From positions 14,322,001 to 14,386,000 of the forward strand of contig NC_092674.1 of NCBI RefSeq assembly GCF_964355755.1: a stretch of 64,000 nucleotides of DNA, in the 5' to 3' direction. Position 1 is the first letter of the stretch. Every line of letters begins with the position of its first letter. Shown here one piece after another: positions 13,040 through 60,700 of this stretch. A model generated the notes under the pieces. It saw nothing but the letters and a program-made list of their open reading frames with translations. It did no database searches and was not told the DNA's origin. Both the position numbers and the translations under genes were made by a program. Source of the DNA: Antedon mediterranea. Its lineage: Eukaryota > Animalia > Echinodermata.

Positions 13040-13138
13040 TTTGGCCTGAAGATCCAATTTAGCACCTTCCTTGAGCAAAATAGTGCAAACATCTGTGTGG
13101 CCGTTTTGTGCAGCCAAATGTAAATGTGACCACCCATC
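13040..13138 (-). CDS. Single-ankyrin-repeat exon E1, the most 3' found (DGWSHLHLAAQNGHTDVCTILLKEGAKLDLQAK)
   Basis: 99 bp with canonical AG/GT boundaries, phase 0-0; lies inside ORF 12962..13156(-); 4 nt differences from E4. Confidence 0.88.
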
Positions 13139-13395
13139 CTGAAATATTACAAACATTATGTTATAGTAATTTTTCTCTAAACAAACTATTATAATATTGT
13201 CCTGAAATCAATACGATGTGATCAATTAAAAATGACGTTATAGATTTAAATAATGCTACATTATTAAATTAAATACGTATACATTTGTCTTTCTTGTATA
13301 ATATTTTTATATAAGTGCTTTATAAATGTATAAAACAAATAAGTGGGGTTTTTTTTGCCTAAAAAGTAAACACTTCATCCGATAGTGCTAACTAG

Positions 13396-15044
13396 ACTGT
13401 CCAAATTAACAACCATTTGGAAAAAAAAAGGCAGTCCACTTGATCCATCAATGTATAGAGGAATATCAATTGGGTCTACATTTTCAAAGATACTTATGGT
13501 TATCATTCTTTCACGTTTTTCCATCTTTTATGAAAGTCAACTTCTACGCACACAGTTTGGATTCAGGTCAAACAGAGGGTGCAATGAGGCTATATATGTA
13601 ATCAAGCAGATCCAGGAAATTGCGTATCGCTTAAATCGCAAACTCTATACATGCTTCATTGATTTAACAGCAGCATTCGACCATGTGAATCGTAATCTTC
13701 TTTTCCTAAGCGTTCGTAATAGGTTTCACTTAAACCAGTCTACTACTATGATTGACATTATACAATCACTGTACAGCTCAACGAAAGCACACCTTGCTGA
13801 CGACGATCCGAGTGATGATAAGTTCGAAACATCTTCTGGGGTGCGACAGGATGGTATTGAGAGTACCAGCATGTTTAACCAATATTTTGATTACGTTATT
13901 AGAGTGTTCAAACAACGCTGTAAAGATGCTAGTTTGGATGGCCTAATGATACAATACCTAATTCCTATTGAAGCTACAAATCGTGCTCAAAGATGTAAAG
14001 CACCATCAAGGGGTATCTATGACGACTTTGAAAATGGCTATGCTGACGACTTTGCTGTAAGCTCCTGGTCACAAGAAGAACTGCAAACCATTGTGAACAT
14101 CTTGAATAAAGTTTGTCTGGAATTTGGTCTAAGAATTAGTGCCCCCAAAACAGAAACCATTATATGGAACTGGAAAGAGGAAGTTGAAGAATACCCAAGA
14201 TGCATCATACAAATTGGCGGCGTACACATTAACAACGTAACACACTTTAGATACCTTGGTGTATGGGCTACCTACAATGATGTTCATATTGGAGATCAAG
14301 AAGTAAAATACAGAATCAATTCAGCCAAAGGAGCATTTGCATAGAATAGGGCATTGCTTACCAACAGAACGATCCACCTACAAACAAGAATGATGTTTCT
14401 TAATGGTCTAGTTAGGAGTAGACTCACCTATGGTTGCCATGCTTGGAGGGCAACAGGAAGTGAAATGTCCAAACTTAGCACAACATACAAAACCTTCCTA
14501 AGAAGAATGCTAGTGAATGGCTTTCAAAGAGTCTGCCCACCAAACCATGTAGACATATCCTCAGATGAAGAAACAGATGAAAACTATATAGACTGGCGTT
14601 ACGTAATTGATAATGACGATCTCTACAAAATTACTGGCTGTCAACCGCTAGAAGAATATGTCTACAAGCAACAATTCAACTGGATTGGACATGTAATTAG
14701 AAAAGAAAATGAAGATCCTACAAAAATTCTTACTTTTCACACAACACAAAGTAAACGAAGAGGTCGGAAGATACCATCAGTACTTGATAGAGTTGTACAA
14801 CAAAGTCAACTTACTAGATGCAACTTCATTAGAGCCTGCTTCAACAGAAATTTATAATTCCCAGCAATGTTTTAACTGTATATATGAACTGTTTTATAAG
14901 TTGTTTTGTGACTGTGTAATTTGGTAGTAGTCACTCTCATACTGTAGGCCTACATTTAAAAGTAACACATCCAAATGCCAACTTCAAGTCAATGGCTACC
15001 AGATGTCTCTGTGAGACGGTTATTTGAACCAGTACCAGTACCAG
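13396..15044 (+). mobile_element. RTE-clade LINE, 5'-truncated, one in-frame stop at 14342-14344
   Basis: ORFs 13385..14344 and 14354..14857 (YRGISIG, QFGFR, FIDLTAAFD, GVRQ, YADD, FRYLG, WIGHVIR); (ACCAGT)n tail; empty site AACTAG|TCTGAG in the paralog at about 39206. Confidence 0.9.
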
Positions 15045-16116
15045 TCCGAGTGTAAATTATGATAAAGGGGCGTTTGAACTGGCAGTTACAGCTAAAATAT
15101 CCAGGATTCAAATTTTGTTCAGGTAACACATTGTGACTGCTAAATTCTTACCATTCATGGTTTCATTTTACCGTTACTTGGAGGGGATATGTTTTTTTAA
15201 TGTTTTATAAAATCAAATGAAAATATCGATTCATATCTATTTATTGTATCATTTTGCATAAAATACAGTGTTGCTCTACAGTACCATCCAAAAACAGAAA
15301 ACTGAAAAAAACCACGAAATATCATTCTCTAACATTCAGTGCCCTAAAGGCATATGGTAACAATGATTACAGAATATATTACGAGAGGTGATGGACCTTT
15401 TCTTTGAACGTCAAAATAGTGCATTGGATATGTTGGGTCCTCAGTAAAGTCTCTTATAAAAATGAGTAATGTAGTCCTATACGTGATGCATAACTAACAA
15501 TACGTTCCAGCTAATTCCTACATGTGGTCTCGGTAAACTATAAAACAAGGAATAATGAGAATACTTTCAATGACAGATTTATAAAAAAGATGTATGCCTA
15601 ATGTGACTTGTTTTATTGTTAGGCCTAAATAACTATGTAACTATGCATTTTTTGATAGGGATGTAATGGGATAAAACGATCATCATTACATTCCCTTTCC
15701 GATGGATGGTTGGTTCAGTGTGGAATGTCGGCCATTTTAAAATACAAATGGCACCTAACTCTTTTGAATTCAGCAACTCAAGAATAACAAAGTTAGCCAA
15801 TAAAATCTATTTTGGCACACACATCCAGCTGGAGCTAGTTTTCCTTACATATATGTGACTGTTTTATACCGTATCATAATGTAGTATATTTTAAATTTTG
15901 ACATGACATAATAAACATTGAAAGTTCTTTCTAACATATTTTTTCTCGGGGTACGCGCCGCCGTCTTCTTTATATCTTTACATAGATTGTATATTGTTTT
16001 CAATAAGCCGTGCGGATGATTCAGGTAATGTCTCTTAGTATTAACAGGGAAGAGTTAAATTACGTAAATTAACTCTTCTCTGGTATTAAAGGGTAACACC
16101 GCGGCTTTAAAATGTA

Positions 16117-16268: not shown

Positions 16269-16685
16269 GTTATTATTACAGTTGTAGACTATGTATAAAT
16301 ATTATAATGTACCGCGATGGTAAGCCGACTCGCAATAAAATTAATAATATTACAAGTAATATTTATTATTAATTTATAAAGATTAAACAAGTTATTACAA
16401 AGTGTGACATCAGTTGTTCAAAAACCTTGATTAATCTGACTTTACAATATCAAGATTAACCTTGACGAGGCAGCGGTGTTCCGAACCATGTTAGGGGTAC
16501 AACCGTGCAGTTCTCAACAATTTAGTCATCCTCGCAAAAAAAAATGATCTGTAATATGACCCGCGATGCTGTTGCTTCATTTAGGTATGCTATTACTGGC
16601 ACGCCCTTTAAATTGTAAAATTAAACACTCTTTTAATCACACTTAATTATTTAGTAATATTATTATTAATTTTTGTAACACTTAC

Positions 16686-16784
16686 TTTCTCATAAAGATC
16701 CAATTTAGCACCTGCCTTGAGCAAAACAGTGCAAACATCTGTGTGGCCGTTTTCTGCAGCCACATTTAAAGGTGACGCTCCGAT
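16686..16784 (-). CDS. Single-ankyrin-repeat exon E2 (IGASPLNVAAENGHTDVCTVLLKAGAKLDLYEK)
   Basis: 99 bp with canonical AG/GT boundaries, phase 0-0; lies inside ORF 16647..16859(-). Confidence 0.9.
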
Positions 16785-17583
16785 CTGAAATATTACAAAC
16801 ATTATATTATAGTATTTTCTCTCTCTAAACAAAGTATTATAATATTGTTCTGGAATCAATACGATGTGATCATTTAAAAATGACGTTATAGATTTAAATT
16901 ATGCTACATAGTTAAATTAAATAAAGAGTATTAACCCTTTTCTTTAAGATAATGTATTGTATTGTATACATATACATTTTTTGTCTTTCTTGTAGGCCTA
17001 TAACATTTTTTTACAGTGTTTTATAAATTTATAAAACAAATAAGTGTTTTTTTTTTTTTGGCCTGAAAAGTAAACACTTCATCCGATAGTGCTAACTAGT
17101 CTGAATGTAAACTGACAGTTACAGCTAAAAATATATCTAGGCTCCAAATTATGTTCAGGTAACATGACACTTTGACTGCAAAATTCTTACAATAATTACG
17201 GAATCTATTACGAGAGGTGATGGACTTTTGCTTTGAACGTCAAAATAGAGCATTGGATAGGTTGGGTCTTGCAAAATTTAATGTGCTTCCTCAATAAAGT
17301 CTCTTATAAAAATGAATCAAATTGAGATCTGCTTAATTATAACTACTGTAAGTGAAGCACAACTAAAAATACGTTCCAGCTAATTCTTACATGGTGAATA
17401 ATGATAATATTTTTAATGACAGATTTATAAAAAAAGACTTAGGCCTATGAGAGGTTTAACTACACAAGATTTAAGTCTACGGAAAAGTAAAGTATATTTG
17501 ATACTCTCATTAATGAGGTCGTGCCATTTAGGATCACTACGGTAGTGATTTATTTGCAATCTCAACTTCAGATTGGGTACCGT

Positions 17584-23897: not shown

Positions 23898-26261
23898 TTA
23901 TTAATTAATACAAACGTTGAGAAGCAACTCTCAGTAATACAGTTTTTATTTGTGTATTATGTGTTTATATATCCAGCAGTAGAGCCTACCCACAGTCACA
24001 GTAATAAATGTTCTTTGTATATGTGTTTATATATCTAACAGTAACCACATTCACAGTAAAAAAATCGATTCTAATGGAGACCAAAAATGGGTAATACGTA
24101 TTTACAATATTTCTAAAGTATTGCAATACTATGTCTCAGTTTTAAGTTTATTTTATTTTATTTTATTTTATTTTATTCAAACTCATTCCACAGCGGGAAA
24201 CCCGCCCCTTACAGAATGGAATAAACTATACCATATAAAAATATATATAAATCTTAAAATCTACAATACAAAATTATACAATTTTACTAATTTTATTACA
24301 AAAACAATTATAACTGTCAAAAAAGAGATCAATAGAATTATCTTTAAGAACACAATTATTAAAAAGAAGACAAATACGTGAAATAAGGGTCCATACATTT
24401 ACCTACAAATTGGGAGTCTGAGAGATTGGAATGTTCTATTCATCGCAAATCAATACATGTGTATAAACGTATATTAAATCTAACAAAATAGTATTTTTTA
24501 AAGAAAATCGGCCTGTCTTCAACATTATGAGACTGTACTCGAGCTGTTCAACCGGTTTTCAGCTATTAAAGCTCAGGTACAGGCATGAATTTTAAATATA
24601 ATATCTGGTTATGTACATAAATGAAATATTTGTAACAGAAATCAAGACAAAAATACATGAATTTCCCTTAATATGGTCGAATACAAAATATGGCAAAATT
24701 CTGCCATAAAAACCACGAAGACTTTTTTTCAGTAGTTAGGTCTTGATAGATTCGTAACGGACGCATATTCAAATGAACCAAATTCACTAGAATTTAGTAA
24801 TGAAGCAAGTTTTAGTTTCGTCCTAAAAAAATCATATCATCGCATCCCATCCTATTACTATTGAAACCGAATTGAAACATTTTAACAAGCTTTTTATGAT
24901 GGTCACACACATCGTCAGATCTATGTATAGTAATGAGAAATATACAAACAATGATGTTGTTGTGATGTCGGGGTGGGTGTTTGGGAAGGTATTTGTTGGT
25001 AACATTAATTTCATAATAAAATAAATTCCCCTATATGAACAAGTACAACACTGTATTTCGTATTATCAAGAAGTGATAACAGTAAACAATTGTATGAAAA
25101 TAATTGTTAAATAGATATAACAGTTAATCAATTATTCAACATAATATAATTATATTTGTGTTATAATACAGAATTGTGTGTATAAATATATGTGGGTGGC
25201 GTGGCGTTTATTAGAGGGTGGAGGTTGAATATACCAAAGATGTTTTATGGGGGAGAGGGCGTTCGTATCTCGGGTCTCAACGGCGATAAATGCAGATAGC
25301 GCGCAACCTGTTCAAATCTAACATCAACTCAACAACTCGGCTACCATTCGGCTATATCGAGATTTTACCTGATTTGAAATACATCTATGATTATAGCTAT
25401 AATCAGTTCTCCCGATGTAGGCATAGACCCCGTTTATGATATTTAAAATTGTATATACTGATTTTAAAATTTACCCGCAATATAATTCGATGATGTTTTA
25501 ATATAATTGATTTGTTGATCGTTTTTTTGCACAAACAAAAATGTGATGTACCCATATATGGACATGATGATGTCATATAATTACCATATTTGGGCACACT
25601 AATGTTGGAATGTTACGCGTGGCCGTAAAAAAAGCAAAACAAACATTGGAGGGGAACAAAAACTCGGAAGTCGCAAAATAGTATTAGTGAAACGCGTAAT
25701 AACATTGCAGTAATATTTATTAATTCATAAAGTTTATGAAATAATCAAATTAAAATAATTATTACAAAGTGCGACAGACAGTTATTACAAAGTGCGACAG
25801 CTCGATTACTACAAGTGCGACACAGTACAAACGGGGTTTACAGATAGTAATTATATGCGATGTGTCTTTTTTTAAGACAGTACTTATCAGGAATGGACCC
25901 TATTTGTGTCCTTTCTTGCGTTTCGGGATCATTAATTTGAAAATAATATTACGTTCTGTGGTGAGATCTTACTTGGAGATTCAGGGCTTTAAATGACCGC
26001 GACTTAAAAACTGTCTTTGATTTGTCTTACTTCCCAATTTCAAGATTAACATTGATGAGGCAGCGTTGTTCCGAATTACGTGAGGGGTACCGTACAGTTC
26101 TCGACAATACAGTCATCCTCACTACAAAGAGGCCTAAGTTGGTTCATTTAGGTATGTTATTACTGATACGCCCTTTAAAAATTGTAAAATTAGCACTTTG
26201 TTTTAATCACACTGAATTATATACTGTAGTACATATTATTATTAATGTTTGTAGCACTTAC

Positions 26262-26360
26262 ATTCTGCTGAAGATCCAAATTAGCACCTGCCTTGAGCAA
26301 AATAGTGCAAACATCCGTTTGGCCCTTTAGTGCAGCCACATATAAAGGTGACGCTCCATT
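26262..26360 (-). CDS. Single-ankyrin-repeat exon E3 (NGASPLYVAALKGQTDVCTILLKAGANLDLQQN)
   Basis: 99 bp, TGTTTGTAATATTTCAG acceptor, GTAAGTGCTACA donor, phase 0-0. Confidence 0.9.
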
Positions 26361-27159
26361 CTGAAATATTACAAACATTATGTTATAGTATTTTTTACTC
26401 TAAACAAAGTATTATAATATTGTCCTGCAATCAATACGATGTAATCAATTAAAAATAACGTTATAGATTTAAATAATGCTAATAATAGAGGGCTAAAATC
26501 ACGCATTATGGCTATGCACGATATTTTTTGGCGTTCCAGATAATTTTATTTTATTGTTTACGTGTTTTAATATTATTTATGATTTTCAGACAAATTTTAA
26601 AAGCTTATTATGCATGAAAATAGTATAGTTTTCTCATCTTCTAAATCAAATGTCAACTGTATACGTGAAGCATAATTTCATTGGATTGTTATTGTATTGT
26701 ATTATATTGTTAAAACAATACATTTCAGTTCCAACTTATCCTTACATACATAAACTTGGTTCTTAATTGATATGACAATCCTTATTGCAGCTTAAAAGAA
26801 GCTATACTGGTATTGAGCGCAGTAACATCTGACAAACGGCGGGCTTTGATAACTGCTGTAAAATCAACAGGGGCTAAATTTGAACCAGAACACTGGCTTA
26901 ACCCGATATTATATTAATCACGAAAGATGCCCTGGATTATTTATCATCATGTTTTAAATCAGATGTAATTAGAATTCTATAAACCTCAGCTTCATCCCTA
27001 TTTCTAGATAAATGCCATTCATACTCATTGAGAGTTGGCTGGTTTATTTAGCAGAAACCAGATATCCTTTAACTTGCATCAGCTTAAACTTATTATAGTT
27101 TGACCAAAATTATGCAAAAATCCCTCCAACTCCCCTTGGGAGTTTTCTGCCGCTAGTTA

Positions 27160-38850: not shown

Positions 38851-38949
38851 ATTGGTCTGAAGATCCAATTTAGCACCTTCCTTGAGCAAAATAGTGCAAA
38901 CATCTGTGTGGCCGTTTTGTGCAGCCAAATGTAAAGGTGACCACCCATT
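38851..38949 (-). CDS. Single-ankyrin-repeat exon E4 (NGWSPLHLAAQNGHTDVCTILLKEGAKLDLQTN)
   Basis: 99 bp, TGTTTGTAATATTTCAG acceptor, GTAAGTGTTACA donor, phase 0-0. Confidence 0.92.
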
Positions 38950-41995: not shown

Positions 41996-42892
41996 GTCAA
42001 TAAATAATACTGTAAATACCTATTAACTATTTTTGGTCCTCATTTGAATCAAACATTTCTTACTGTGAATGTTCGTACTGTTAGATGTAATATAAAAATA
42101 TATACAAATAAACTTTATTACTGAGATTTTGGTTAGGCTCTATTGTTAGATATATAAACACATTATTATATACAAATAAACTTTATACTGGCAGTTCCTT
42201 CTCAACGTTTGTATTAATTAATAATTACCAATAATATAAACGTCGTAGTGGTGTATCGTGACATTTAACAAAGTATTAAATCGCAAATGTTTTACTGTAT
42301 TTAGAGGTATATTATTTATAGGCCTATAAAACATGAACAAAATATTTCGTTACTGAGTGGATAAAGAATATATTTAAAAAATTGTTCCTCTTTGTACCTA
42401 TCCGCTTTCCCATCCCTCAACCCTAATGTTACATACAAAACACAAATTGGGTTTCTTTAAATGAGTCCAAATCAAAAATTTGGACTTATTTTGTGATAAG
42501 TTTCTCCTTCGAAAGTAATTCCCAGGGTGCTAATTTTAGTTGACTACATAAATCATCGTGTCTATTTATTCGTTTCTGTAAACGAAAATGTATTATATAA
42601 TAGTACATTTGAAATCGCCAGTTTTGTTACGCTGAAATTACTGTGTATTCGAGAACCATCTGTGGGCACGACCTAGATCTCTAGTTTAATTTAATTTAGC
42701 CTAACAGTTTGTGATTTTACGGATTTTAGCACCGTGACCTCTGACTGCAGTTGATACAAATTGTTGCTCATTGTTTTATTTAGCTTAGATATTATCCTAT
42801 TATATGCCTAGAAGAATAGGAGTTAGGCCATGTTATATTATATAGGCCAGGAACTTTGTTAACGTCTGTGTTTTGTATGGTAAATACACATA

Positions 42893-43957
42893 CGCCCGTA
42901 TTCTTAAACCGGACTTTAGTCGTAGTTCGAGCTAAAACTTGATGAATGACATCATTTTAATTCATAAACAAAACTTCAACCAAATCGGCGACAAAATCAG
43001 ACCAACCTTCACTAAATCGAGACGGATTTTGATCGATGGGGCAGGCTAAATCGCCGACTAAATGGTATTTAATCGAGGTTTATAAAAAATATAACAGTCC
43101 TTGAGTTGTTATATTGGCCAGATATTGAAGAATGAAATATCTATTTTTATATTAGTTGAATTAAATATGCATTGGTATAATGTTGATGCAAATCATGTTT
43201 ATTTACAACCGTATACAAATTACATAATTTTCTTCGCGCAAGTCCGCGATGGAACATTTATAGCGTTTTCTTGTCACGCTATGAAGTACGTGATTCGTCG
43301 CGATCTTACTTTGTTGGAGGCCTATAAAATATGGAAGTTTTTGTTTGTTGTTAATGAAAAGTACTTTAATTTTAAATTAATACTGATCTTCTTTCTATAA
43401 TAAACGATTAAGATTATTTTTCATGTATAGTCCTGATGCGTAAAAAGTTTTGTTATAACAAAATGGAAAGTGATATTAATTCGCAAAATGTCGTCTTTTA
43501 TCATTGGCCAATTTTAATTTATAATATTTATTAAAATAGCCTTTCTTACCCAGACGTGTGAAACTCGACTAAAGCTCGACTTCATTAAGTCAAACTGCAA
43601 ACTTGGACTACTTCGTTTATGAATCGAATTTTTTTATTTTTTTTTATTTTATTTATTTTGTTTAACCATATTTAATGAGGGTGATCCATCCAGCTATTGC
43701 TGATCATTAGGGACCCTCAGAGGTTCACAAGACAAACATATACACAAGATGCTCTACATAAACAAAGTCTTATTACAAGTCTTTGGGAGTGGAGTAATTT
43801 GGTCCTTAGAAAAAATCCTGACATGTGACGGGACTTGAACCCAGGACCTTTAGAGTGGTAGCCAAGCATCATAACCACCAAGCCACAACTCCACTCCAAG
43901 TACTTTTGAAGTCGAAGTTCGAACTACGACAAAATTTCGGTTTAAGAATAACGGTCG
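42893..43957. mobile_element. PIF/Harbinger-like non-autonomous element (copy at 57920-58983)
   Basis: About 40-bp imperfect TIR CG(C/A)CCGT(T)ATTCTTAAACCG....GTCGTAGTTCGA; ATA/TAA flanks. Confidence 0.55.
43629..43897 (-). mobile_element. tRNA-derived SINE (copy at about 58655-58923)
   Basis: A box TGGCTTGGTGG and B box GGTTCAAGTCC on the minus strand; A-rich tail. Confidence 0.75.
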
Positions 43958-45539
43958 TAAATGGCTATTTAAATTATATAGAGTAGGGAAATATATTATA
44001 AAGAGCGTTTACCTTGGCAATAAGCAATTCAAAGTTGAATATTTTAAATGTGAACGTACCCCCCCCCCCCCTCCCAACTTCATCAAATGTGCCATGACAA
44101 GGACAGTAATCGGTGATACCATACAAAACACACATTTGACATTGATTAAATTTAATTCAATAGTTTGGAGTCATTTTATAACAAGTAATTTCCAGGGTTC
44201 GAATTGTATTCGATTAATAATTCAACGTGTCTGTATTATTTGTTCATGTCGATATGTATACTGCTGTACACACAGCCTTCCCTACACTTATTTATTTACG
44301 CCGAAACTGCACAACAGTTCAGTAGAACCTCTCCTTTAGAACACTCTATTCAGGGAACGAGAACTCCGAATGCCAAAAGAAACAACACTACAAAAGCAAA
44401 CAGAAAAATGACTAAATAATTATATTCATCATTATTCGAACCCTTGCCGATGTTGTTGGCTCTTTACCATCAGACACGTGAATGAACCTGTCATTTCTTC
44501 TGAAGGATCTGTCTGAGCAGGACAGCGAAACTCCCAAGCAGGTTAGTTTCACTAATTTTTTTTTTTCGAAAATAATTAATAAATTTCACATGCCTTACCG
44601 TTACATAAAATGCAGAGTGTAAATAATCTCCGCGAAGCAATAGAAATTATGTCATTAACATGCATACTAGTCTGGAACAAAAATCTGAAAAGAGGCCTAG
44701 AAATCAAGATAGGGGAAGTGGAATGCTACAGGCAGTAAACATAGCCAGATATCAATCCCTTCTGATCACTCTAAGCTTTGTTGACACAATGTTTTGCCTA
44801 GTCTATACATCACTTCAAGTAGTCTTCTAATACTAATATCGGTATGTGTAATTTTCAAATGATATCACGATTTTCAGCTAGACAACATCGACCAAATTTG
44901 CTTCACTCGTAACATCTCATCCCCTCCCCTTAAAACTCATGTCTACTATTCTGTTGTACCATATCATGATACATTTCAAACATTTTTGTTTTGAAGATGT
45001 CGATATCTTGTCGTCTCTGCTTATCATTACTGTCTCAAAATCCACGTCAACATTGGCGAATGGTGGGGTACCGCAGGTTTTGACTTATTTTTCTCTTTTC
45101 CATTTATATTTAATAAGAGTTTGCTCCGTTTATCCAGTAGGATCACTCAGCTTTGTTGGCATGATACTTCTATCACTGTGACCATACTTGAAATGAGTAT
45201 CTTGAATAACAAAATCAGCAATAGTTGGTTCCATAGAAATGAAAATTGGTTGCTTTTTGTCGGCTGGAATTATATTGCTTTTATAGCCACAAAAATTGTC
45301 AGTACTCTGGTTTTCAGTGTCAACCACAAAAACATGTGAGAGGTACGACCGCCGTGCAGTTATCGACAGTACAGTCATCCTCGCTACAAATTACAGTATC
45401 TATAATATGACCCGCATTGTGGTTGGTTCATTTACCTATATTATTACCGGCACGCCCATTAAATTGTACAATTATTATTATTTTTTTAATCACACTGAAT
45501 TGTATAGCACCTGTTATTAATACCATTTGTAACACTTAC

Positions 45540-45638
45540 ACTGTTTGGAAGATCCACTTTAGCACCTGCCTTGAGCAAAATAGTGCAAACGTCTTTGTGG
45601 CCCTTTTCTGCAGCCCTATTTAAAGGTGACCATCCCTT
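45540..45638 (-). CDS. Single-ankyrin-repeat exon E5 (KGWSPLNRAAEKGHKDVCTILLKAGAKVDLPNS)
   Basis: 99 bp, TTTCAG acceptor and GTAAGT donor, phase 0-0; 3 nt differences from E6. Confidence 0.9.
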
Positions 45639-46016
45639 CTGAAATAATTACAAACATCATGTTATTGTAGTCTTCTACAAAAAGCTAATTAATATTGTAT
45701 TGAAATCAATTCTATGTGATCAAGAAAGATTATCTTAAAGGCCAGATGAGGGGAAAGAATTCCTATTAATCTTACATTCCAATATCTATATTTTCCCCTA
45801 AGTTTCATAGTTTATGGAATTCTATTTGTAATTTGTCAGATGTTTTGCTCTACTCTGACGTAATTTGTTCTTCATATTAACATTATTGAGAACACTTTCG
45901 CATTCCAAGTAGTTCTCGGGTGGGGCTTGAACCCACGACCTCCAGATCGCAGATCTTTCGCTGATGGCTAGTGGTTAGATTCGAGCCCAAAGTAAGCAGC
46001 GGGTACTGTACCAACA

Positions 46017-46108
46017 GGGTTGTAATTGTATTAATCTACTGTGGAGAGTAGGGCAAAACTCCATGACGCAAAGCTACTCCACAGTAGTTTAATACAATTA
46101 CAACCCCC
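46017..46108. repeat. 30-bp-arm hairpin next to an antisense tRNA-like fragment (copy at about 61048-61139)
   Basis: GGGTTGTAATTGTATTAA.CTACTGTGGAG / CTCCACAGTAG.TTAATACAATTACAACCC; B-box-like GGGTTCAAGCCC on the minus strand at about 45923-45934. Confidence 0.6.
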
Positions 46109-46943
46109 GATTTAATTTGTGTTACACAAGATTGTTGAAAATAAGCACTTTATTATCAGTCAAATTACACAATAAAATATCTATTCTTTTGTACACAAAT
46201 GTTGTAAATAGAGAGGCATTTTAATTTATTGATGATAACAAGTTTATTATTACTGTAACCGAATTAGTCATGATATACGATGAATTTAAATCAGTTTTTG
46301 CATCATGAGGTAAATATAAATACTGGTTCGTAATGTCCAACACTCCACACTAAACATGGCCATGCATTTAATACTAAACATTGTATTACAATGAAATGTC
46401 AAAATGTTATAATGTACTTGGTATCAAAACTATACTAAATGACCAAAAGGTGACATACACTTTTGTCAAATCATCTCCTGTTTTGTATCGTTGGATAGAT
46501 TTTAACTATGAAACTATTTTAACAATAATATTGTTTGTACACTATACGTATGATGTAGTAATTGTTTGTTTGTCATTGAAAGTAATGGTAAATGTATAAT
46601 TTGTTTAGTGTCCCATATCGTTTATGAACGCGTTATAATTTTGATTCTGTTCTGGTTTTATGTGTAAAAGTGAAGATCAAAATAATTAAAATATTAGAAG
46701 TAATCGTGATCTTTGAAATTATAATCATGAATATTGTCTCCATGTTAATAATTTAAAGTAATATTTTTTTAAATTTTATATGTCATTTGACCCAGGCCTA
46801 AATAATATGAAAAAAAAAATCTTTTAAAAAACAATAGTACATATATATAATCCGAATGTGCATGTATATTGCTATGATATACATATTTAAATAACTTTCT
46901 CTCTGGCCTTCCGATTTAGGTGAAGTAGACATTATTTTATTAT

Positions 46944-49900
46944 TCGTTTCGTTTCGTTTATTTATTTTTTCCACTCACTTATATATATATATATATATAT
47001 CATTTACATTTACATAACATAACATATATTAAATGTGGGTGGATGGAAGTCACAGTAAGTTCACTGAACTTTAAGTCGTGACTCCCGTATGCCTAAGTAT
47101 ACTAACATTGCTACAGAGTAGACTAAAATATAAATATATAATAGTGAAAGTACATAAAATAAAGAAATAAAAAAAAATTTAAATTATAGAAGTTAAGATA
47201 AACCAGGCAATTATATAATATATGATAAAAGGGATAATGATAACAATTAGAGTACAATATGAAATATAATTAAATATGGTATAATAACAAGTATAACGAT
47301 ACAATGTAGCGGAGATTATTGAATACCAGGGTGAAGGATTTAATGCCATGTATCACCACCAAATAAATAAGGATAAAAGATCGGCGAAAATTTATGTAGC
47401 ATATTCTGACACCATTTTGTGTTTGAAATTAGATTTAAAACTAGAAAAGGAAGATTTCTGTTTAAGTTCATTTGAGAGTGAAGTCCAAAGTTTGGGACCA
47501 AAATAATACATAGAAAATCGTCGAGCCTTAACATTTAAATTATCAAGGATATAATTGTTAACAGAGGATCGGGTTTTATAGGAATGGCGTTCGTCAATTC
47601 TTGTAAATAAAGCATTAAAATGTGAAGGCAGTAAATTGTTAGATAAACGGTACATAAATGAGGCAACTTGTAATTTATTTAAATCATAAATGTTTAAAAC
47701 GTTAAATCTTTTAAAAAGTAATTTTGTATGGGCTCTAAATGATTCTCCCGCGCAAATCCGAAGTGCACGTTTTTGTAGTTTAAAAAGGCGGTCAATTTGA
47801 GTTTTCTCTAGACTTGTCCAGGGGCATAACGTATTAAATTTATCTAGAGTAATTGCCCAACATATATTGGCATAAGAAAGGTAAGGCAAAACTAAAGTAT
47901 TATAAAGGGTTAATAAGGTTTTTTGAGGGAAGATATGTTTTAATTTGTTCAATATTCCAACATTTCTAGAAACTAGATTACTGATTTTATTTATATGTAG
48001 TTTCCAAGTCAGAGAGGCATCTATGGTTACTCCTAAAAATTGGGGTTCATTAACTCGTTTGATCATTTTATTATCAATGTATATTTGTTCATTTAAAGAA
48101 TTTGAAATTTTACATAGATGACAAATTTCGTTTTTGTAAAAGCACAAGTTAACGGAGTACTTACTCGAACGTTTCGATCTCTATCAGAGATCCTTCTCAA
48201 CTGACTGCGGAGTGTTAATGCAGCTTGGTCATTCTTGACGTCATCTGTTGATGACGTTGTACGCCTCCGGTTGTAGGTTGGAGGTTGTGCGGGGCTCGGC
48301 CAGGTGATGTGTCTATCAAATCATTGTACAAATGCGAGAGTTCGTGGGCTCCAGTGTCCCGGTTCATGGTCTTCTCTTTATTTCTCCTTATATGTAATGA
48401 TTCTCTAATCTGTCTGTCTTTGCGTTTAGGCTCTTTGGTTAAGATGGTAGCCTCCCAGTTCGGTACATGATTGTGTTTTATGACATGTTCTGTAATGGCA
48501 GATTTGTGTATGATCGAAGATGTGGATGTTCTGGAGGCCCTAGTCATTACTCCCCCCGTGTTTGTTGTAACATCTTTTTTGTGATCATTGATTCGTGTTT
48601 GTAATGCCCTCCCTGTTTCCCCAATGTAAACTTGTGGACAGTTGCGGCAGGTGACTTCGTAGATTACTCCACATGTATCCATCTTCTCGATTTTATCTTT
48701 TGGGTGGACGAGGCTATTCTTGATTTTATTTTGGGGTAGGAAATAGGTTCCGACATTGTGATAGGAGAGAGTGCGTCGTATTCTTTCTGCCATTCCTTTT
48801 ACATAGGGGATTCCTATGCTACCTCGCATCTTGATCTTTTCCTTCTGTGGTTCGTGTCCTTTGTTCTTTTTCCTTTTTCGGTTTTCCATAACTCTCTGGA
48901 AGGACCACTCTGGATACTGGCAGTTGTGTAACGCTTTCTTGATGTTATCCATCTCAACTTTCCTCAAATCCATATCTCCCACTACCTTCTCAGCTCTGTC
49001 CACAAGCGTGTTTATAAGCCAGTTTGTGTTCGAGTGGATGATGTGAGTTGAAATGTAAATATTGGTCTGTGTGAGTGGGCTTCCGATAGACTGAGGTGGT
49101 AACTGTTCCATTGTCATTGAGTGTGATGAGCATGTCCAGGAAAGGTATTGTGTTGTTTGTCATCGATTCTGTGGTGAACTTGATATTGTCAGTTATATCG
49201 ATGTTATTAAGATGTGTGTTAAATGTATGTACTGTACCTATGGGGATGATAGCTAATACATCATCAACGTATCGTTTCCAATACACAGGCTTGATGTTAG
49301 TGGGTGCCGTGTTTATGGCTTGATGTTCGAGCCACTCTAGATACAAGTTCGCCAATATAGGACTTATTGGGCTTCCCATAGCAATGCCTTGTATTTGCCT
49401 ATAAATGTTACCATTGAACGAGAAATAGGTTTTGTTCACAATTAAACCGAGGAGCTCCATTATGTCTGTCACATGTAGTTTAGTTCTATCCAGAAGTGTC
49501 GGATCTGTTGTTAGGCGATTTTCGACAACTTTGAGGGCCTCTTCTACTGGTGTTTTTGTAAACAGAGATACTACGTCAAACGAGACAAATGTTTCACTTG
49601 GTTTGACTATTATTTCTTTTAGTTCACTCGCCAACTCTCCTGAGTAAGTTACATGATGTTCTGTGTTTCCGACAAGCGGACCCAGGATTTTGGTGAGGAA
49701 TTGTGCAACGGTGTAAAAAACGGTGTTGATGTTATCTACTATAGGTCTTAATGGCCAATTTGGTTTATGTATCTTCGGAAGACAATACAACCTAGGTACA
49801 ATTTCAGCCGTGGGAAACAGCCATTCTTTCTCTCTGTAGTTGATTTTCTTTTCTTTGAACAACCTGCCTATGATGTTGACCACTTTTCGTTTATAGTTTT

Positions 49901-51083
49901 GTGTTGGATTACGTTTTAGCAGTTCGTAAACATTAGTGTCGCTCACCATGGTTCCCACTTTATCTTTGTAATCATTAGTATTTAGGATGACAGTAGATCT
50001 ACCTTTATCCGCTGGGAGAATAAGAATAGATTTATCTTTCTTCAAGTTGTTTATGGCCTTTCGTTCTTTGGGGGTTAAATTTGAAGGTGGTAGAGTGGTA
50101 GATTTTACAATAGCTACAATTTTACTGCGAACGAGAATGACCATCATCAAGAATGACCAAGATGCATTAACACTCCGCAGTCAGTTGAGAAGGATCTCTG
50201 ATAGAGATCGAAACGTTCGAGTAAGTACTCCGTTAACTTGTGCTTTTACAAAAACGAAATTTGTCATCTATACAAAATCGAAGCTAAATGAAATTCTTTC
50301 AAGATTGAAATTTTACGTTTAGAAAATATTATATAGTTCGTTTTGAATGTATTAAGAGTTAATTTATTGTGTTTGAGCCAATTTGAAACTTTAAGTAACT
50401 CATCATTGACAATTTTAAACAAGGTATTTAATTTAGGATGAGAGAAAAAAATATTTGTGTCGTCAGCAAATAAGATAAAATTTAGTAATTTAGAGCTGTT
50501 TGGTATATCGTTAACAAAAATCAGGAATAAGAGTGGTCCAAGAATCGATCCTTGGGGAACACCACAGGTTAAACGGGAATAGGAAGAGGTAAAACTATTT
50601 AAGGAAGTAAACTGAACACGATTGGAAAGGTAGCTTTTAATTAGTTTTAAAGGAAGGCCTCTGATACCGTAATTTGAAAGTTTATGAATTAAAATATCGT
50701 GGTTAATAGTATCGAAGGCCTTAGATAAATCAAGGAAAATGCCAACAGAAAACTCATTTTTACTCAGGGCATTTGTAATTTTGTCAAAAATATCTAATAA
50801 AGCAAGATCTGTTGAATACTTTTTCCTGAAACCATATTGGCCTTTAAATAAAATGTTATGTTTAGTTAAAAAGGAAGAAATTCGATTATGCATTATTTTT
50901 TCAATTAATTTTGAGAAACAAGGAAGTAGGGAGATTGGTCTGTAGTTATTGAAATGATGAGGATCTTCTTTCTTGTAGATAGGGATGACTTTAGCTATTT
51001 TAAAAGAATCAGGAAAAATACCGGTTTGAAAAGAAGTATTAAAAATGTGAGTTAAGGGTTTGCATATAAAATTAGAGAATAAC
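46944..51083 (-). mobile_element. L2/Crack-like LINE, 5'-truncated, split by a Penelope-like element
   Basis: ORFs 50264..51085 and 47392..48147 join in frame (FSKRKISNSLNEQ) once the PLE is removed; NYRPISLL, FLDLSKAFD, GVPQGSILGP, FADD; ATTAT TSD; empty site at about 61970. Confidence 0.92.
48114..50304 (-). mobile_element. Penelope/Poseidon-type PLE (RT + C-terminal GIY-YIG) with inverted pLTR
   Basis: PADKG, LYCLPKIHK, SFDVVSLFT, GIAMGSPISP, RYVDD, VYRKPTHTD; GVIYEVTC..C..VYIGETGR; one frameshift; about 125-bp inverted repeats (48114-48238 / 50147-50271); 12-bp TSD TTGAAATTTTAC (48102-48113, 50305-50316). Confidence 0.93.
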
Positions 51084-51550
51084 ATTATGACATACAGTAG
51101 TAACGTTCTACCGCTATTTTGTATTGAAGATAATCATGTTCCTTTGTATTCAGTGCTACTAATCACCAACATCATTGATAGAGAACCAGATGTAAACAAC
51201 AGACGCATCAGAGGTAATTTAAATCGGACGACGAGGAACCCAAATCATCAACAGAGACAAAGGCGTCCACCAACTCACATTGGCTCCCTAGAGGTATGTC
51301 AGTTTAAAAACATATTTTATTCTAAAGGAGCTGTCTAAGCAGGACTGCCAAGCAGGTTAGTTTCGCTAATTGTTTTTTTTTTCGAAAAGAATTAATAATT
51401 CACATGTCGTATCGTTACGTAAAATACAGAATGTACATAATCTCCGCGAAGCCATAACACTTATTTCATTACCATGTATATCTCACATCAAGTCGTCTTC
51501 AATACCGGTACGTGTCATTTTTAATTCAGCTTGACCACATTATTCGCTTT

Positions 51551-52869
51551 GAGACCCGTTGCACTCACGTCTGTCGCGATGAAAATATTGGAACGTATTA
51601 TTTTAAAAATTATGCAACCTTATGCTGAAAAGGTGTTAGACCCGTTGCAATTTGCTTACCGATCACTCCGTAGTACCAGTGATGCGATTTATTTTAAATT
51701 ACATAAATTGTATTCACATCTAGATAATGTAAAGAAAGGCCACTCGGCGGCACGTATTATGTATTTTGATTTTCAATCTGCGTTTAATACCATACAACCC
51801 CATATCTTAGCAGACAAAATGTTGAATATGGAGTTTCCCCGTCCGATTGTTCGTTTAGTTTTAAATTTCATTTGTGATAGAAAACAATTTGTTAATATTA
51901 ATGGTGTTAAGTCAGAAATCGTAACCTCTGACACCGGTGTTCCTCAGGGTACTGTCAACGCACCTAAATTATATTCCTTGTATACGCCGGATTACAGATC
52001 TTTAAATGATGAGCTTTGCCCCGTTGTTAAATTCGCTGATGACACTAGTACTATTGGTCTCATAGTTTCAAACAATGATGAAAATTATCGTAGCGAAATA
52101 CAAAGATTTGTTAAATTTTGTGACGATAATTATCTCCAAATAAATGCATCAAAAACAAAGGAGATGATCATTGATTTTAGGACTAAACATAAATTTAATT
52201 TTCAACCAATCACTATCAAAGGTAAAGAAATTGAAATTGTTGACCAGTACAAGTATCTAGGAATTGTTTTCAATGATAAACTGAGTTGGGGAGACCATAT
52301 AGACTTCATCAGCAAAAAATTAAGTCCCAGAATGTATTGTATGAGAACTTTATATAAATTTAACTCCTATGATTTGATGTTACTTTCGTTCTATAGATCC
52401 ATTATATGTAGTGTTTGGACGTATTGCCTCTCCTGTTGGGCTGGTAATGTTACCGGAGGGAATAAAGGACGCCTTGAAACTTTCATCCGTCGGGCTGGTA
52501 AAATGATTGGTCTGGAACTGCCTTCCTTTACCGATGTGCACCTAGAACACCTCCAGAAAGATTTCGAACGCATTGAGTCGGATGCCTCTCATCCTCTCCA
52601 CAAAGTGATCATAGACCAACTTAATCCAAGTGGTAGATTGAGGCTCCTCAGTGTGAAAACAAATCGATTTGCTAAATCCTTTATTCCCTCCGGTATCATC
52701 CAGTACGACAGGAAGTCAAGAAGATAATTTTATATTGTAATTTTTTAGATGTTTTTATATGAATGGTTTTATGCTATATTTGTTTTTATAGTGTTTTCTT
52801 TGTTATTATGACGAGCAATGAATTTCCTTTTTGAGGATCAATAAAAGTTATCTTATCTTATCTTATCTT
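51551..52869 (+). mobile_element. Rex1/Babar-like LINE, 5'-truncated, open RT ORF to 52727
   Basis: RPVALTS, DPLQFAY, YFDFQSAFNTIQP, GVPQG, KFADD, YKYLG, SHPLH; (TCTTA)n tail; empty site at about 62432. Confidence 0.92.
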
Positions 52870-54249
52870 ACACTCAACGTTTCATCCCCTCTTTTTAAAA
52901 ATCTACAATTCTGTTGTACAATTTCAAACATTCTTGTTTTGAAGATTTCGATATCTTGTCGCCCTTGCTTTAATCATTACTGCCTCGACTCTGTTATCTA
53001 AAACTTCAGTGTCATCCAAAAAACATGTACTTTTGCACGCTTACTTTACGCGGAAAATATTCGGACGGTTAGTTTAACACCTATTTCCCGTTTAAAAGTC
53101 GAAACTCATCTCATTGTAAGCTTTAATATCATGTACATAAACAACACTGAATGTGTTTCACACTTGCTATATCACTGCATCTCGAACATCTTGACCTGGA
53201 GAGGTTCGTCAGAATCCTGTTTGAGCAGAACGATTTATAACAATGACGTCACATATAATAGGACACCGGTTTTTGTAGAGAGTTCGAAATAGAAATGGTT
53301 AGGTTAGTCAGTGTGTGCTCTAAATTGAGCTGTTTTTACTTCACAATATCAAATACCTCAATTTGTTTGAAATCTATTAATTTTTTGCGATCATTGATTG
53401 TCTTCAATTTTTAATAGTGGTTCTGATTTTTAAACCATCTTGAGAACAATGTGAGCAGAGTTTGGATTTGATTTACGCATTATCTTTCTGAGCTTAATTG
53501 TTGAATCACGTACAGCTATTACTGCATCTGAAAATTTTGCATATTAAAGTTTAACTAAAATACACCATAGTACCCTGTGTTATCGGAGAAATATTCGAGA
53601 AAATATTACACACCTGTAAGTGTAAGTGCGCACTCATATTGCTTATAATAACTTTGAAAGCACGCTTCGGTATTGCCAATCGCAATGGTTTAGAGCAGGA
53701 CGCCAAACTGTAGGATATAGCTTTAGGATTGGGTGCAGGTAGTGGTGGTAACTGCTGTAACATCAACAGGGCTTAATTTTAACGAGAACACGGGGTAACG
53801 ACACATTTATCAAGAAAGATGCTCTTGATCATCATTTTTTAAATACGATGTATTTATAATTATATGGACCTCAACAAAATCCATCTAAAGTACCAGCAGC
53901 ATTGGTTGACAAACCCTTAATCTTCGATCACATACTGACCGTCATTAAGCTTTATAACCAGTCACATCAATGAGGAACTTAATTACACACTGCATTGTTT
54001 GCAAACTGGTAAGTAATACAACCCAACAACACTGTCATGATGTAATTAGGAAAAGAAGAAACAAAATGACTTCTTTCATTGAAACATCAATTTTAATTGA
54101 TGTTTCAATAAAAATACATACAGGAGCTATTTTGGCTTGGTATTATGTACAAAAGCCCTAGAAAACATCTTATTTTATTGTTTTAGTTTTCTTCAGAAAT
54201 ATAACTTTTGATTTCATTTTTTAAACACGATATTTGTATTCGAGTATTA

Positions 54250-54635
54250 TCTTACTTGAATCTTACTTGAATCTTCGGGCTCTTGATTAAGGCAAATGCC
54301 TTTTAAACGCCCTCCATTTCTTCTGTATTTATCTAGAATTGGTAGCAAAATTTATCTCCCATTGCTCTGTCTTTGTTTAGTTGATCCTTGAATGCATTTA
54401 TGTTTTCTGCTTGTACTGTAGTGTGGTATAGATTGTTCCATGTGTTGACGATTCTACATGAAAAGGAGTGGCTTCTGATTTTCAGTCGGGCTCTTGGCTT
54501 TCTTAATTTGAATTGATGGCCCCTTGTTCTACTGTCCTCTCTAAAGTCAAAAAAGGTTTCGGCTTCAATATCATCCAAGCCCTTGATAATTTTAAACACT
54601 TGTATAATGTCCGCTCTCCTTCTTCTGTAATTCAA
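54250..54635 (-). mobile_element. CR1-clade LINE 3' end
   Basis: LNYRRRRADIIQVFKI...RTRGHQFKL...FS.RIVNTWN.L; tandem AAGATTCAAGT tail. Confidence 0.82.

Positions 54636-55157: not shown

Positions 55158-55160
<3 letters not shown>

Positions 55161-55241
<81 letters not shown>
55161..55241. repeat. (TA)n microsatellite
   Basis: About 40 perfect TA units. Confidence 0.98.
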
Positions 55242-55247
<6 letters not shown>

Positions 55248-55299
55248 ACAGCAGAAAACTTGGTTACTTCATTGTTTTAATCACTACAAAATTTACAGC

Positions 55300-56810
55300 T
55301 TGGTGCAAAAGGAACACTACATTCGATGTTACTATGGGTAGCTACGACGGTGCTGAAACATGCGAGTTAATTGGTCTGTTTCTGCTAGCCAAACTGGAGC
55401 CCAAGTACGGTAATAACATAGGATTGTACAGGGATGACGGACTCGCGGCATTTAATGAAACTCCTCATGTTATTGAAAAAATAAAAAAAGATCTCTGCAG
55501 CACATTCAAAGAACATAATCTAAAGATAACGATCGAAGCGAATAAGAAAATTATAAACTACCTAGATGTAACGCTTAATCTCAACGATGGAAGCTATAAG
55601 CCTTATTTAAAGGAAAACAACAAACCACGCTATGTTCATTGCAAAAGTAATCATCCAGCATCAATAATTAAGAACATCCCTGAAGGCATAAACAAAAGAT
55701 TATCAAACATTTCTTCGAATGAAACTGTTTTCAATGAATCAAAGAAACCGTACCAAGAAGCCTTGTATGAAAGTGGATACGACCACAATCTGAAGTACAA
55801 CCCGACCAATACCAGCGAACAAAATAATGTGAAGAAGACAAGGAAAAGAAATATCATCTGGTTCAACCCGCCTTACAGTGCCAACGTGAAAACCAAAATA
55901 GGGCACGAGTTCTTAAAGACTGTAGATGAATGTTTTCCACATAACCATGAGCTAAGAAAAATATTTAATAGAAACACCATTAAAATCAGCTATAGTTGTA
56001 TGCCTAATATAGGGTCTGTAATATCGGCCCACAACAAAAATGTATTACGTAATGATATGCCCTGTGATAACATCAAGCAATGCAACTGTCGACATGAATG
56101 CCCATTAGATGGGAAATGCCTAACCAGTGGTGTTGTTTATCAGGCAACAGTAACAACAAATGATGATGATAAAGTTGAAACATATGTCGGACTAACCGAA
56201 AACACATTTAAATGCAGATATAACGCACACAATAGTTCATTCCGTAATGTTAAATACAAAAACAGCACAACGCTTAGCCAGTACATCTGGAAGCTAAAAG
56301 ATGGTAACATAAAGTATAACATTAAATGGCGAATAATAAAGAAGTGTAAACCATATTCCAATGTTAACAAACGGTGTAATCTATGCTTACAAGAGAAGTA
56401 TTATATTATATGCAAGCCTGAAACCAGCTCACTTAACCATAGGAACGAATTAGTCAGTGCATGTAGACATAGGAGAAAGTTTCTACTAAAGTATCAGTTA
56501 TTTAGATAATAAGAATTTGGTTAACAATAGACTGTCCAGGAAATAGAGATGTGTTGTACTTGCTAATTAGCATACTATTGTTCACATAAACAGTTTGCCT
56601 TAAGACTTCATTATAGCTTTTTGTATTCACTTGTGACTATCATTCAGAGCCAAGCACCTGAAGATTGAGTTCATACTCATGAAACAGCCTGTAGTGCAAT
56701 AAAATGTTCAGTTGGTAATTTACTAGCGTCTTTCATTTATTTATATTTGGCTCTACATTTTGTATCGAGCACTTTCGCTTTCATGGTCTGCGTTAAATTC
56801 ACCACGATTT
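55300..56810 (+). mobile_element. Penelope-like element of a second lineage (probably Hydra clade), 5'-truncated, (TA)n-flanked
   Basis: ORF 55334..56509: [28 protein letters not shown]...CPLDGKC, VVYQATV...YVGLT (GIY-YIG-like), CNLC; (TA)n on both sides. The clade name is from memory, not a search. Confidence 0.82.
56654..56697 (+). ncRNA. Type I minimal hammerhead ribozyme in the PLE 3' region
   Basis: GCAC-CUGAAGA-U-UGAGU(UCAU)ACUCA-U-GAA-ACAG(C)CUGU-A-GUGC: intact core, stems I, II and III, GUA cleavage triplet. Confidence 0.85.
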
Positions 56811-57269: not shown

Positions 57270-57700
57270 AATGGATGTGCTGTCTATAACGCAAAATCTA
57301 AAGAGACCTATCATCCAACGTCATCTCTAAAGTGAAACTATTTGCCAATTATTGCATTCATAACACAATTCTAAGTACTGAAGACGCTGGAAATTGCAAA
57401 CAGACTTTGTAAGCGAACGAGAAAAAGGTGTTAAAATGCTAAATGCTTCTCCGTGAGAGTTAAACACAGGAAAACACCAATCATATACGAACACAATCCT
57501 TTCTAGTATTTGAACTCAGTCAAGTTAGATTGGTCAACCCATATAAACTAAATCACCAATAAAGCAAACAGAATACTAAGATTGCGCAACATAAATCTCT
57601 ATAGTACAATTGTAGTAGGAATATTAAACTATAGCGTATAACTATCTTATTCGACCTTTAAGCTTGAGTAATGTTTTGACGCTTGGCCAAATCACGAATC
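57270..57700 (+). mobile_element. Highly decayed CR1-like RT fragment
   Basis: KVKLFA, ITNKANR and LIRP remnants across frameshifts. Confidence 0.45.
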
Positions 57701-57771
57701 GGACATGTACATGCTAATATTTGCAGCTAAACACATAGCACAATAATATGAGGATGCTTCGATGCAACCGT

Positions 57772-60700
57772 TAGCCTAACAGTTTTGTGATTTTACGGAT
57801 TTTAGCACCGTGACCTCTGACTGCAGTTGATACAAATTGTTGCTCATTGTTTTATTTAGCTTAGATATTATCCTATTATATGCCTAGAAGAAGTGTGTTT
57901 TGTATGGTAAATACACATACGCCCGTATTCTTAAACCGGACTTTAGTCGTAGTTCGAGCTAAAACTTGATGAATGACATCATTTTAATTCATAAACAAAA
58001 CTTCAACTAAATCGGGGACAAAATCAGGCCAACCTCGACTAAATCGAGACGGATTTTGATCGATGAGGCAGGCTAAATCGCCGACTAAATGGTATTTAAT
58101 CAAGGTTTATAAAAAATATAACAGTCCTTGAGTTGTTATATTGGCCAGATATTGAAGAATGAAATATCTATTTTTATATTAGTTGAATTAAATATGCATT
58201 GGTATAATGTTGATGCAAATCATGTTTATTTACAACCGTATACAAATTACATAATTTTCTTCGCGCAAGTCCGCGATGGAACGTTTATAGCGTTTTCTTG
58301 TCACGCTATGAAGTACGTGATTCGTCGCGATCTTACTTTGTTGGAGGCCTATAAAATATGGAAGTTTTTGTTTGTTGTTAATGACAAGTACTTTACTTTT
58401 AAATTAATACTGATCTTGTTTCTATAATAAACGATTAAGATTATTTTTCATGTATAGTCCTGATGCGTAAAAAGTTTTGTTATAACAAAATGGAAAGTGA
58501 TATTAATTCGCAAAATGTCGTCTTTTATCATTGGCCAATTTTAATTTATAATATTTATTAAAATAGCCTTTCTTACCCAGACGTGTGAAACTCGACTAAA
58601 GCTCGACTTCATTAAGTCAAACTGCAAACTTGGACTACTTCGTTTATGAATCGAATTTTTTTATTTTTTTTTATTTTTTTTTTTTTTTTTACCATATTTA
58701 ATGAGGGTGATCCATCCAGCTATTGCTGATCATTAGGGACCCTCAGAGGTTCACAAGACAAACATATACACAAGATGCTCTACATAAACAAAGTCTTATT
58801 ACAAGTCTTTGGGAGTGGAGTAATTTGGTCCTTAGAAAAAATCCTGACATGTGACGGGACTTGAACCCAGGACCTTTAGAGTGGTAGCCAAGCATCATAA
58901 CCACCAAGCCACAACTCCACTCCAAGTACTTTTGAAGTCGAAGTTCGAACTACGACAAAATTTCGGTTTAAGAATAACGGTCGTAAATGGCTATTTAAAT
59001 TATATAGAGTAGGGAAATATATTATAAAGAGCGTTTACCTTGGCAATAAGCAATTCAAAGTTGAATATTTTAAATGTGAACGTACCCCCCCCCCCCTCCC
59101 CCAACTTCATCAAATGTGCCATGACAAGGACAGTAATCGGTGATACCATACAAAACACACATTTGACATTGATTAAATTTAATTCAATAGTTTGGAGTCA
59201 TTTTATAACAAGTAATTTCCAGGGTTCGAATTGTATTCGATTAATAATTCAACGTGTCTGTATTATTTGTTCATGTCGATATGTATACTGCTGTACACAC
59301 AGCCTTGCCTACACTTATTTATTTACGCCGAAACTTCACAACAGTTCAGTAGAACCTCTCCTTTAGAACACCCTATTCAGGGAACGCGAACTCCGAATGC
59401 CTAAAGAAACAACACTACAAAAGCAAACAGAAAAATGACTAAATAATTATATTCATCATTATTCGAACCCTTGCCGATGTTGTTGGCTCTTTACCATCAG
59501 ACACGTGAATGAACCTGTCATTTCTTCTGAAGGATCTGTCTGAGCAGGACAGCGAAACTCCCAAGCAGGTTAGTTTCACTAATTTTTTTTTTTTTTGAAA
59601 ATAATTAATAAATTTCACATGCCTTACCGTTACATAAAATGCAGAGTGTAAATAATCTCCGCGAAGCAATAGTAATTATGTCATTAACATGCATACTAGT
59701 CTGGAACAAAAATCTGAAAAGAGGCCTAGAAATCAAGATAGGGGAAGTGGAATGCTACAGGCAGTAAACATAGCCAGATATCAATCCCTTCTGATCACTC
59801 TAAGCTTTGTTGACACAATGTTTTGCCTAGTCTATACATCACTTCAAGTAGTCTTCTAATACTAATATCGGTATGTGTAATTTTCAAATGATATCACGAT
59901 TTTCAGCTAGACAACATCGACCAAATTTGCTTCACTCGTAACATCTCATCCCCTCCCCTTAAAACTCATGTCTACTATTCTGTTGTACCATACCATGATA
60001 CATTTCAAACATTCTTGTTTTGAAGATGTCGATATCTTGTCGTCTCTGCTTATCATTACAGTCTCAAAATCCACGTCAACATTGGCAAATGGTGGGGTAC
60101 CGCAGGTTGTGACTTATTTTTCTCTTTTCCATTTATATTTAATCAGAGTTTGCTCCGTTTATCCAGTAGGATTCACTCAGCTTTGTTGGCATGATACTTC
60201 TATCACTGTGACCATACTTGAAATGAGTATCTTGAATAACGAAATCAGCAATAGTTGGTCCCATAGAAATGAAAATTGGTTGCTTTTTGTCGGCTGGAAT
60301 TATATTGCTTTTATAGCCACAAAAATTGTCAGTACTCTGGTTTTCAGTGTCAACCACAAAAACATGTGAGAGGTACGACCGCCGTGCAGTTATCGACAGT
60401 ACAGTCATCCTCGCTACAAATTACAGTATCTATAATATGACCCGCATTGTGGTTGGTTCATTTACCTATATTATTACCGGCACGCCCATTAAATTGTACA
60501 ATTATTATTTTTTTTTTTAATCACACTGAATTATATAGCACCTGTTATTAATAACATTTGTAACACTTACATTGTTTGGAAGATCCACTTTAGCACCTGC
60601 CTCGAGCAAAATAGTGCAAACGTCTTTGTGGCCCTTTTCTGCAGCCCTATTTAAAGGTGACCATCCATTCTGAAAGAATTACAAACATCATGTTATTGTA

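Follow-up and report, generated by a model that had tools for sequence, protein, structure and literature searches.

A gap-free window of 64,000 nucleotides (33% GC) from the feather star Antedon mediterranea (contig NC_092674.1, positions 14,322,001 to 14,386,000) carries six 99-bp exons on the minus strand, each encoding one ankyrin repeat. Our preferred reading, to which we give a probability of roughly 0.6 on sequence evidence, is that these exons are recent one-repeat cassettes of a multicopy family and likely form the fast-evolving sensor of an ankyrin-Roc-COR (ROCO) GTPase gene. The exons were copied together with their introns, they differ most where an ankyrin repeat is expected to bind, and in a related gene model from the same species such cassettes run into the probable start of a Roc domain.

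Six recently duplicated one-repeat exons

Numbered in transcript order, the exons are E1 (60571-60669, the 5'-most in the window), E2 (45540-45638), E3 (38851-38949), E4 (26262-26360), E5 (16686-16784) and E6 (13040-13138), separated by introns of 14932, 6590, 12490, 9477 and 3547 bp. All are phase 0-0, are flanked by a TTTCAG acceptor and a GTAAGT donor and pass the cut-off of Pfam Ank (PF00023; E 5e-11 to 9e-6); joined, they give a 198-residue reading without a stop. The array, its intron lengths and its near-identical splice signals had been described in an earlier note made from the sequence alone (the original prediction), and both coordinates and lengths were reproduced exactly. Pairwise identity among the exons is 80-96 of 99 bases and 20-30 of 33 residues, and their intron flanks also align with each other.

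The same note saw no further host exon between the cassettes, and frame scans recognised none: 0 of 130 minus-strand frames of at least 28 residues in 1-13100 and 0 of 141 scanned in 13100-64000 exceeded a Pfam cut-off, although short or family-less exons could escape such scans. The second scan covered 141 of the 167 frames of 45 or more residues, the 26 omitted frames being ones that overlap cassettes or transposon open reading frames (ORFs), and gave one sub-threshold match, to DUF6165. Neither blastn nor tblastn found a seventh copy in the window, which likewise contains no inverted or non-coding repeat exon (the six copies are intact and on a single strand) and no ZU5 or death exon. A search for relatives of the 83-residue frame around E5 gave no match, and the exact cassette motif had 0 matches in metagenome contigs.

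The six exons are recent duplicates of an exon-plus-intron unit, later spread apart by transposon insertions. That the copied unit comprised exon plus intron follows from identity running into the introns, and it bears out the predicted status of the exons as recent paralogous cassettes. E1 lies within a unit of ~6 kb (57771-63822) whose second copy, with E2 inside, occupies 42696-54250; the two differ by 66 mismatches in 6113 aligned bases (1.1%) and by two large insertions in the second copy (~46943-51084 and 51550-52868), which carry long interspersed nuclear element (LINE) or Penelope ORFs. E6 is likewise a recent copy, in this case of the E3 type, which is not its neighbour. The E6 unit (13010-15821) is 95-98% identical to the E3 unit (38821-39981) and has a 1.65-kb LINE fragment inserted in the 5' intron of E6 (~13393-15043); the uninterrupted form is present at E3 and in contigs of two public sequencing runs, X1 and X5. 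The 3' flank that E6 shares with other cassettes ends ~30 bp past the donor. E5 with its conserved intron flanks (16357-17193) is ~81-83% identical to the E3 (38527-39316) and E4 (26017-26481) flanks. With the LINE fragment subtracted, E5 and E6 are ~2 kb apart, which makes it probable that the basic unit began small and was enlarged by transposons afterwards. Transposon remnants account for most of the long ORFs tested: among 17, eight match RVT_1, RNase H or GIY-YIG, eight have no match and a single one gave a weak hit to something unrelated. The LINE fragment (13370-15043) is ~99% identical to a 3584-bp contig of a further run (X9, organism C), a young element found across organism labels.

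Diversification of the predicted binding face

Changes among the cassettes are concentrated on the predicted binding face, above the divergence of the flanking introns, a pattern that fits positive selection. Codons 1, 3, 11, 12, 31 and 33 are those that we take, in the numbering assumed here, to be the positions randomised in designed ankyrin repeat proteins (DARPins). Among E3-E5, 10 of the 18 sites in these codons vary, compared with 57 of the 331 sites in the flanks (p=0.0004), whereas the whole exon (21 of 99) does not differ from the flanks (p=0.37). Exons of different type among E3-E6 are 14-17% apart and their 100-bp 5' flanks 5-9%. Model M2a was preferred over M1a on all three trees (p=0.0016, 0.026 and 0.0019) in a self-written implementation run on six sequences with no recombination term, and sites 3, 8, 31 and 32 were picked on each tree. 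The two young pairs differ only by amino-acid changes (three of three between E2 and E1, four of four in E6, one of them replacing the conserved Pro5), a 7/7 that is not significant alone (~0.18 by hand). The exon tree pairs E4 with E5 and neither flank tree does, which suggests conversion between cassettes or convergence.

Variants in public contigs show the same tendency. Read singly against E3, 25 of 30 variant rows change an amino acid, with no indels among those listed; at the six codons 11 of 45 possible changes occur versus 14 of 172 elsewhere (p=0.006); these rows and the window copies are not independent data. That no flank variants are listed for these contigs was set aside as evidence: the window copies do differ there, and the alignment probably misses such variants.

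In the predicted model of the closest relative (P0247, described below) each repeat has two helices, helix 1 at cassette positions 5-12 and helix 2 at 15-23, which places the variable sites on helix 1 and the inter-repeat loop. Helix 2 is stable across cassettes; amino-acid changes are in excess in helix 1 and the loop, the face with which ankyrin repeats usually bind (PMC8229355). The DARPin-like variability proposed in the original prediction is therefore found where binding is expected. With these engineered proteins, which serve as an analogy only, the cassettes share a self-compatible 33-residue repeat, a fixed framework and a variable surface (PMC8683736; PMC8229355; PMC6796971), and matches in the PDB include many DARPin chains. 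Unlike DARPins, in which six positions per repeat are randomised (PMC6796971), the window cassettes also vary at codons 7, 8 and 32, a post hoc addition to our set.

Could the pattern instead come from the neutral expansion of repeats in a housekeeping ankyrin, E1 and E2 being in part an assembly duplication of two haplotypes? Variable ankyrin positions are tolerant by nature, and the 1.1% between the E1 and E2 units is not above the difference between the window and X1 contigs over four intron pieces of low depth (4-7 letters in 258-380). However, the window is gap-free, two large insertions set the E1 and E2 units apart, divergence among the other exons is 14-19%, and binding-face codons diverge more than introns. 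Canonical ankyrins (ANK1-3) also have 99-bp exons and 33-residue repeats. Local identity to the ankyrin-2 proteins listed does not exceed 63%, and repeats within the three measured are ~39% alike, as against 20-30 of 33 residues here, so the contrast drawn by the original prediction with anciently diverged canonical repeats stands. We consider this neutral explanation highly improbable.

The closest relative and a probable link to ROCO GTPases

Searching 1.84 billion representatives with a profile of the six exons returned a sole outlier among the 150 matches listed, P0247 (XP_071950050.1), an uncharacterised Antedon mediterranea model with 203 bits from four repeats; among longer proteins the search was dominated by many-repeat proteins. 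P0247 consists of three cassettes, a divergent fourth (capping) repeat, a linker and a P-loop with a sub-threshold match to the start of a Roc domain. Its cassettes match the window exons at up to 26 of 33 residues, E3 being nearest, with none identical, and the next best among 264 proteins reaches 21 of 33. Its N-terminal residues equal a translation of the acceptor flank that precedes the window exons; the database model is a fragment starting in an intron, and such genes are easily missed in annotation. The C-terminal part is 51% identical over 102 residues to a Roc-COR module of a second uncharacterised Antedon model, P0282, which passes the Pfam Roc and COR-A cut-offs. A search with this part gave six longer proteins, of which only P0282 matched in the GTPase part. 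ROCO expansions are described in animal lineages, with ROC invariably followed by COR (PMC4104024).

Since P0247 joins the cassettes to a probable Roc start, the window gene is likely an ankyrin-Roc-COR gene with its ends outside the window, and the cassette family probably feeds genes of this kind. The original prediction had placed the remaining domains of the receptor outside the window; this is supported in that P0247 points to Roc, and none of the non-cassette parts of P0247 occurs in the window. The product is likely to act in the cytosol as a ROCO-type sensor, not at the cell surface as an allorecognition receptor. Allorecognition receptors of the Hydractinia Alr type have a signal peptide, extracellular Ig-like domains and a transmembrane helix, and nothing seen in the window, where neither gene end lies, suggests such a protein.

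P0282 (1681 residues) has short ankyrin repeats, all divergent from the cassettes, and two tandem Roc-COR modules, the second Roc with an acidic repeat insertion; its hydrophobic C-terminus may span a membrane.

Family size and splicing in public contigs

Public contig runs under four organism labels contain parts of the region, each at most 0.48 of its words. Contigs were aligned on the E3 exon with 40-bp flanks for X1 (161), X5 (67), X6 (83) and X11 (8), leaving out runs X12-X16 with their small shares. The cassette family is multicopy, with many more members than the six of the window. In X1 the depth of three cassette bins exceeds that of two unique intron bins ~17- to 30-fold, but summed contig depth is not equated with copy number and the E6 bin includes a probable LINE tail, so the conclusion is limited to many more cassettes. 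Join types not present in the window occur among the aligned contigs, and cassette number varies, from three in P0247 to six or more here.

Coverage of X11 is confined to 38853-38948, that is, to the exon, and the depth of the exon peak relative to the acceptor flank is ~42x in X5, ~2x in X1 and 0.4x in X6. All five joints listed (three in X5, two in X11) step back exactly 99 nt in frame. From the exon-only coverage, the depth ratio and the joints we read X5 and X11 as RNA, and X1 and X6, which have none of the listed head-to-tail joins, as DNA-like. The in-frame joining of cassettes claimed earlier thus finds support at the level of the family. A loose end in X5 begins at the exact exon boundary, its 25 letters all equal to the E1 3' end (24 for E2), and another joint, read by hand, is similar to E5-E6. 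We did not accept this X5 loose end as showing that E2 is skipped, because the downstream exon may be of E1 type or a paralogue. In X11, loose ends read by hand pass from cassette ends to repeats that are divergent and look like the P0247 capping repeat. Separately, loose ends at 38913 in X5 and X6 reveal a more divergent cassette type, with a common second exon half and a different helix 1.

Combinatorial use, whether Dscam-like alternative splicing or somatic rearrangement, would let one locus yield many receptors, and repeat exons of algal ROCO genes are alternatively spliced (PMC11378527). Every subset of the window exons stays in frame, and in X5 the exon-end type PNN continues into at least three different exon starts (read by hand). 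Yet in contigs of a multicopy family isoforms are inseparable from paralogues and alleles, and the window holds six cassettes only, none inverted; as the main mechanism, combinatorial use is very unlikely.

Proposed mechanism and its alternatives

For the ankyrin-ROCO sensor that we favour, the starting point is that phase-0 cassettes were copied with their intron flanks and then separated by transposon insertions. Unequal crossing-over and conversion between similar flanks could let the germline gain, lose and recombine cassettes with the frame intact, and selection would tune the binding surface. The spliced repeats would stack into a cytosolic solenoid that would regulate the Roc-COR switch when it binds a ligand that is variable and probably foreign.

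Several observations weigh against this proposal. The ROCO link depends on one fragmentary gene model at another locus, which is apparently cut at both ends and stops before COR; the Pfam Roc match of its C-terminal part (E 1.8e-5, 25.4 bits) lies below the cut-off of 27, and residues 173-324 have a predicted local distance difference test score below 50, so that the fold there is not interpretable (structure atlas matches for residues 130-324, at 0.75-0.76 and under our bar of 0.9, are leads only). In the window itself neither a start exon nor a capping repeat was found, and neither Roc nor COR. Framework codons are only weakly constrained relative to flanks (6 of 72 versus 57 of 331 sites, p=0.07), conversion among copies, given the disagreement of exon and flank trees, could inflate the selection test, and E6 lacks Pro5. 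Neither X5 nor X11 is recorded as RNA, X5 covers introns as well (depth ~20), and no join is specific to the window locus.

The cassettes might instead belong to a locus with another effector, or to an ankyrin-only adaptor. Homogenised ankyrin arrays on nSTAND3, Macro or death domains occur in other matches (P0004, P0134, P0002, P0148), and the window includes neither end of the gene. Against this, the sole close cassette relative found, one of 264 proteins, runs into a Roc start, and the X11 loose ends lead from cassettes into repeats like its capping repeat; we regard a different effector as unlikely. An orphan or decaying array, silent as a reservoir or a pseudogene while its family is transcribed, appears quite unlikely. 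The 13 kb after E6 hold a gypsy-type reverse transcriptase (RT) fragment and no recognisable next exon, E6 has lost both Pro5 and the usual 3' flank, and non-coding repeat exons are known in Ectocarpus ROCO loci (PMC3341825). All six exons nevertheless keep the frame and both splice sites although their flanks carry gaps, introns inside the array already reach 15 kb, and one X5 loose end equals the E1 end at 25 of 25 letters.

A bolder version of the ankyrin-ROCO sensor, fairly unlikely in our view, is a natural DARPin library, in which immune sensors would exchange exons between loci and splice them combinatorially into individual intracellular repertoires. Set beside the leucine-rich repeat genes of brown algae, such a library would imply that shuffled repeat cassettes were joined to the Roc-COR switch more than once. 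An animal ankyrin version of exon-per-repeat ROCO sensors would offer a candidate system for variable recognition inside echinoderm cells, and a natural counterpart with which to compare DARPin design.

Comparison with known ROCO systems

The candidate immune receptors of brown algae include ROCO genes with one leucine-rich repeat (LRR) per exon, exon shuffling, diversifying selection and alternative splicing (PMC3341825; PMC11378527). The parallel with Ectocarpus drawn by the original prediction holds in that in both systems each frame-preserving exon codes for a single repeat, duplications are recent, selection diversifies the binding face and the family is multicopy with varying repeat content; a common Roc-COR core is likely. 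Here, however, the host is an animal and the exons are 99-bp phase-0 ankyrin exons instead of 72-bp LRR exons; the introns are 3-15 kb and filled with transposons, and inverted cassettes were not seen in the window.

Among animal ROCO proteins (DAPK1, LRRK1/2, MFHAS1 and the Trichoplax expansion) a repeat sensor likewise precedes Roc-COR. Unlike in these proteins, no kinase was seen here, and the repeats are young and mutually ~60-90% identical. Exon-per-repeat diversification of ROCO sensors is, in the literature found, restricted to brown algae, and a review section on ROCO proteins gives repeat-exon shuffling for Ectocarpus only (PMC4104024). Titles and abstract starts of the top matches, with subscription journals largely and supplements wholly outside this scope, gave nothing on the ankyrin genes of crinoids or on ROCO genes of animals with ankyrin-exon cassettes; a survey of animal ROCO domain combinations in a 2024 algal paper may include ankyrin-ROCO (PMC11378527).

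Other repeats in the window

Gypsy-type RT and RNase H ORFs lie on the plus strand at 1966-5455, ~2 kb apart. A GC-richer island (38-43%) at 6100-7700 contains many CTAG-type motifs, inverted ends (6241-6297/6988-7045) and a short tandem array, and may represent nested small transposons or a promoter region. An inverted duplication of 94-96% identity (31678-35524), whose ORFs at 32522-32878, 33395-33754 and 34077-34637 have no convincing Pfam match, is probably a DNA-transposon remnant. One or more Penelope-like ORFs at 48218-50180 match RT and GIY-YIG, and 55244-56509 is Penelope-like by resemblance only. Inside the E2-E3 intron, a 495-bp unit occurs twice in tandem at 39785-40773, the copies being 98% alike.

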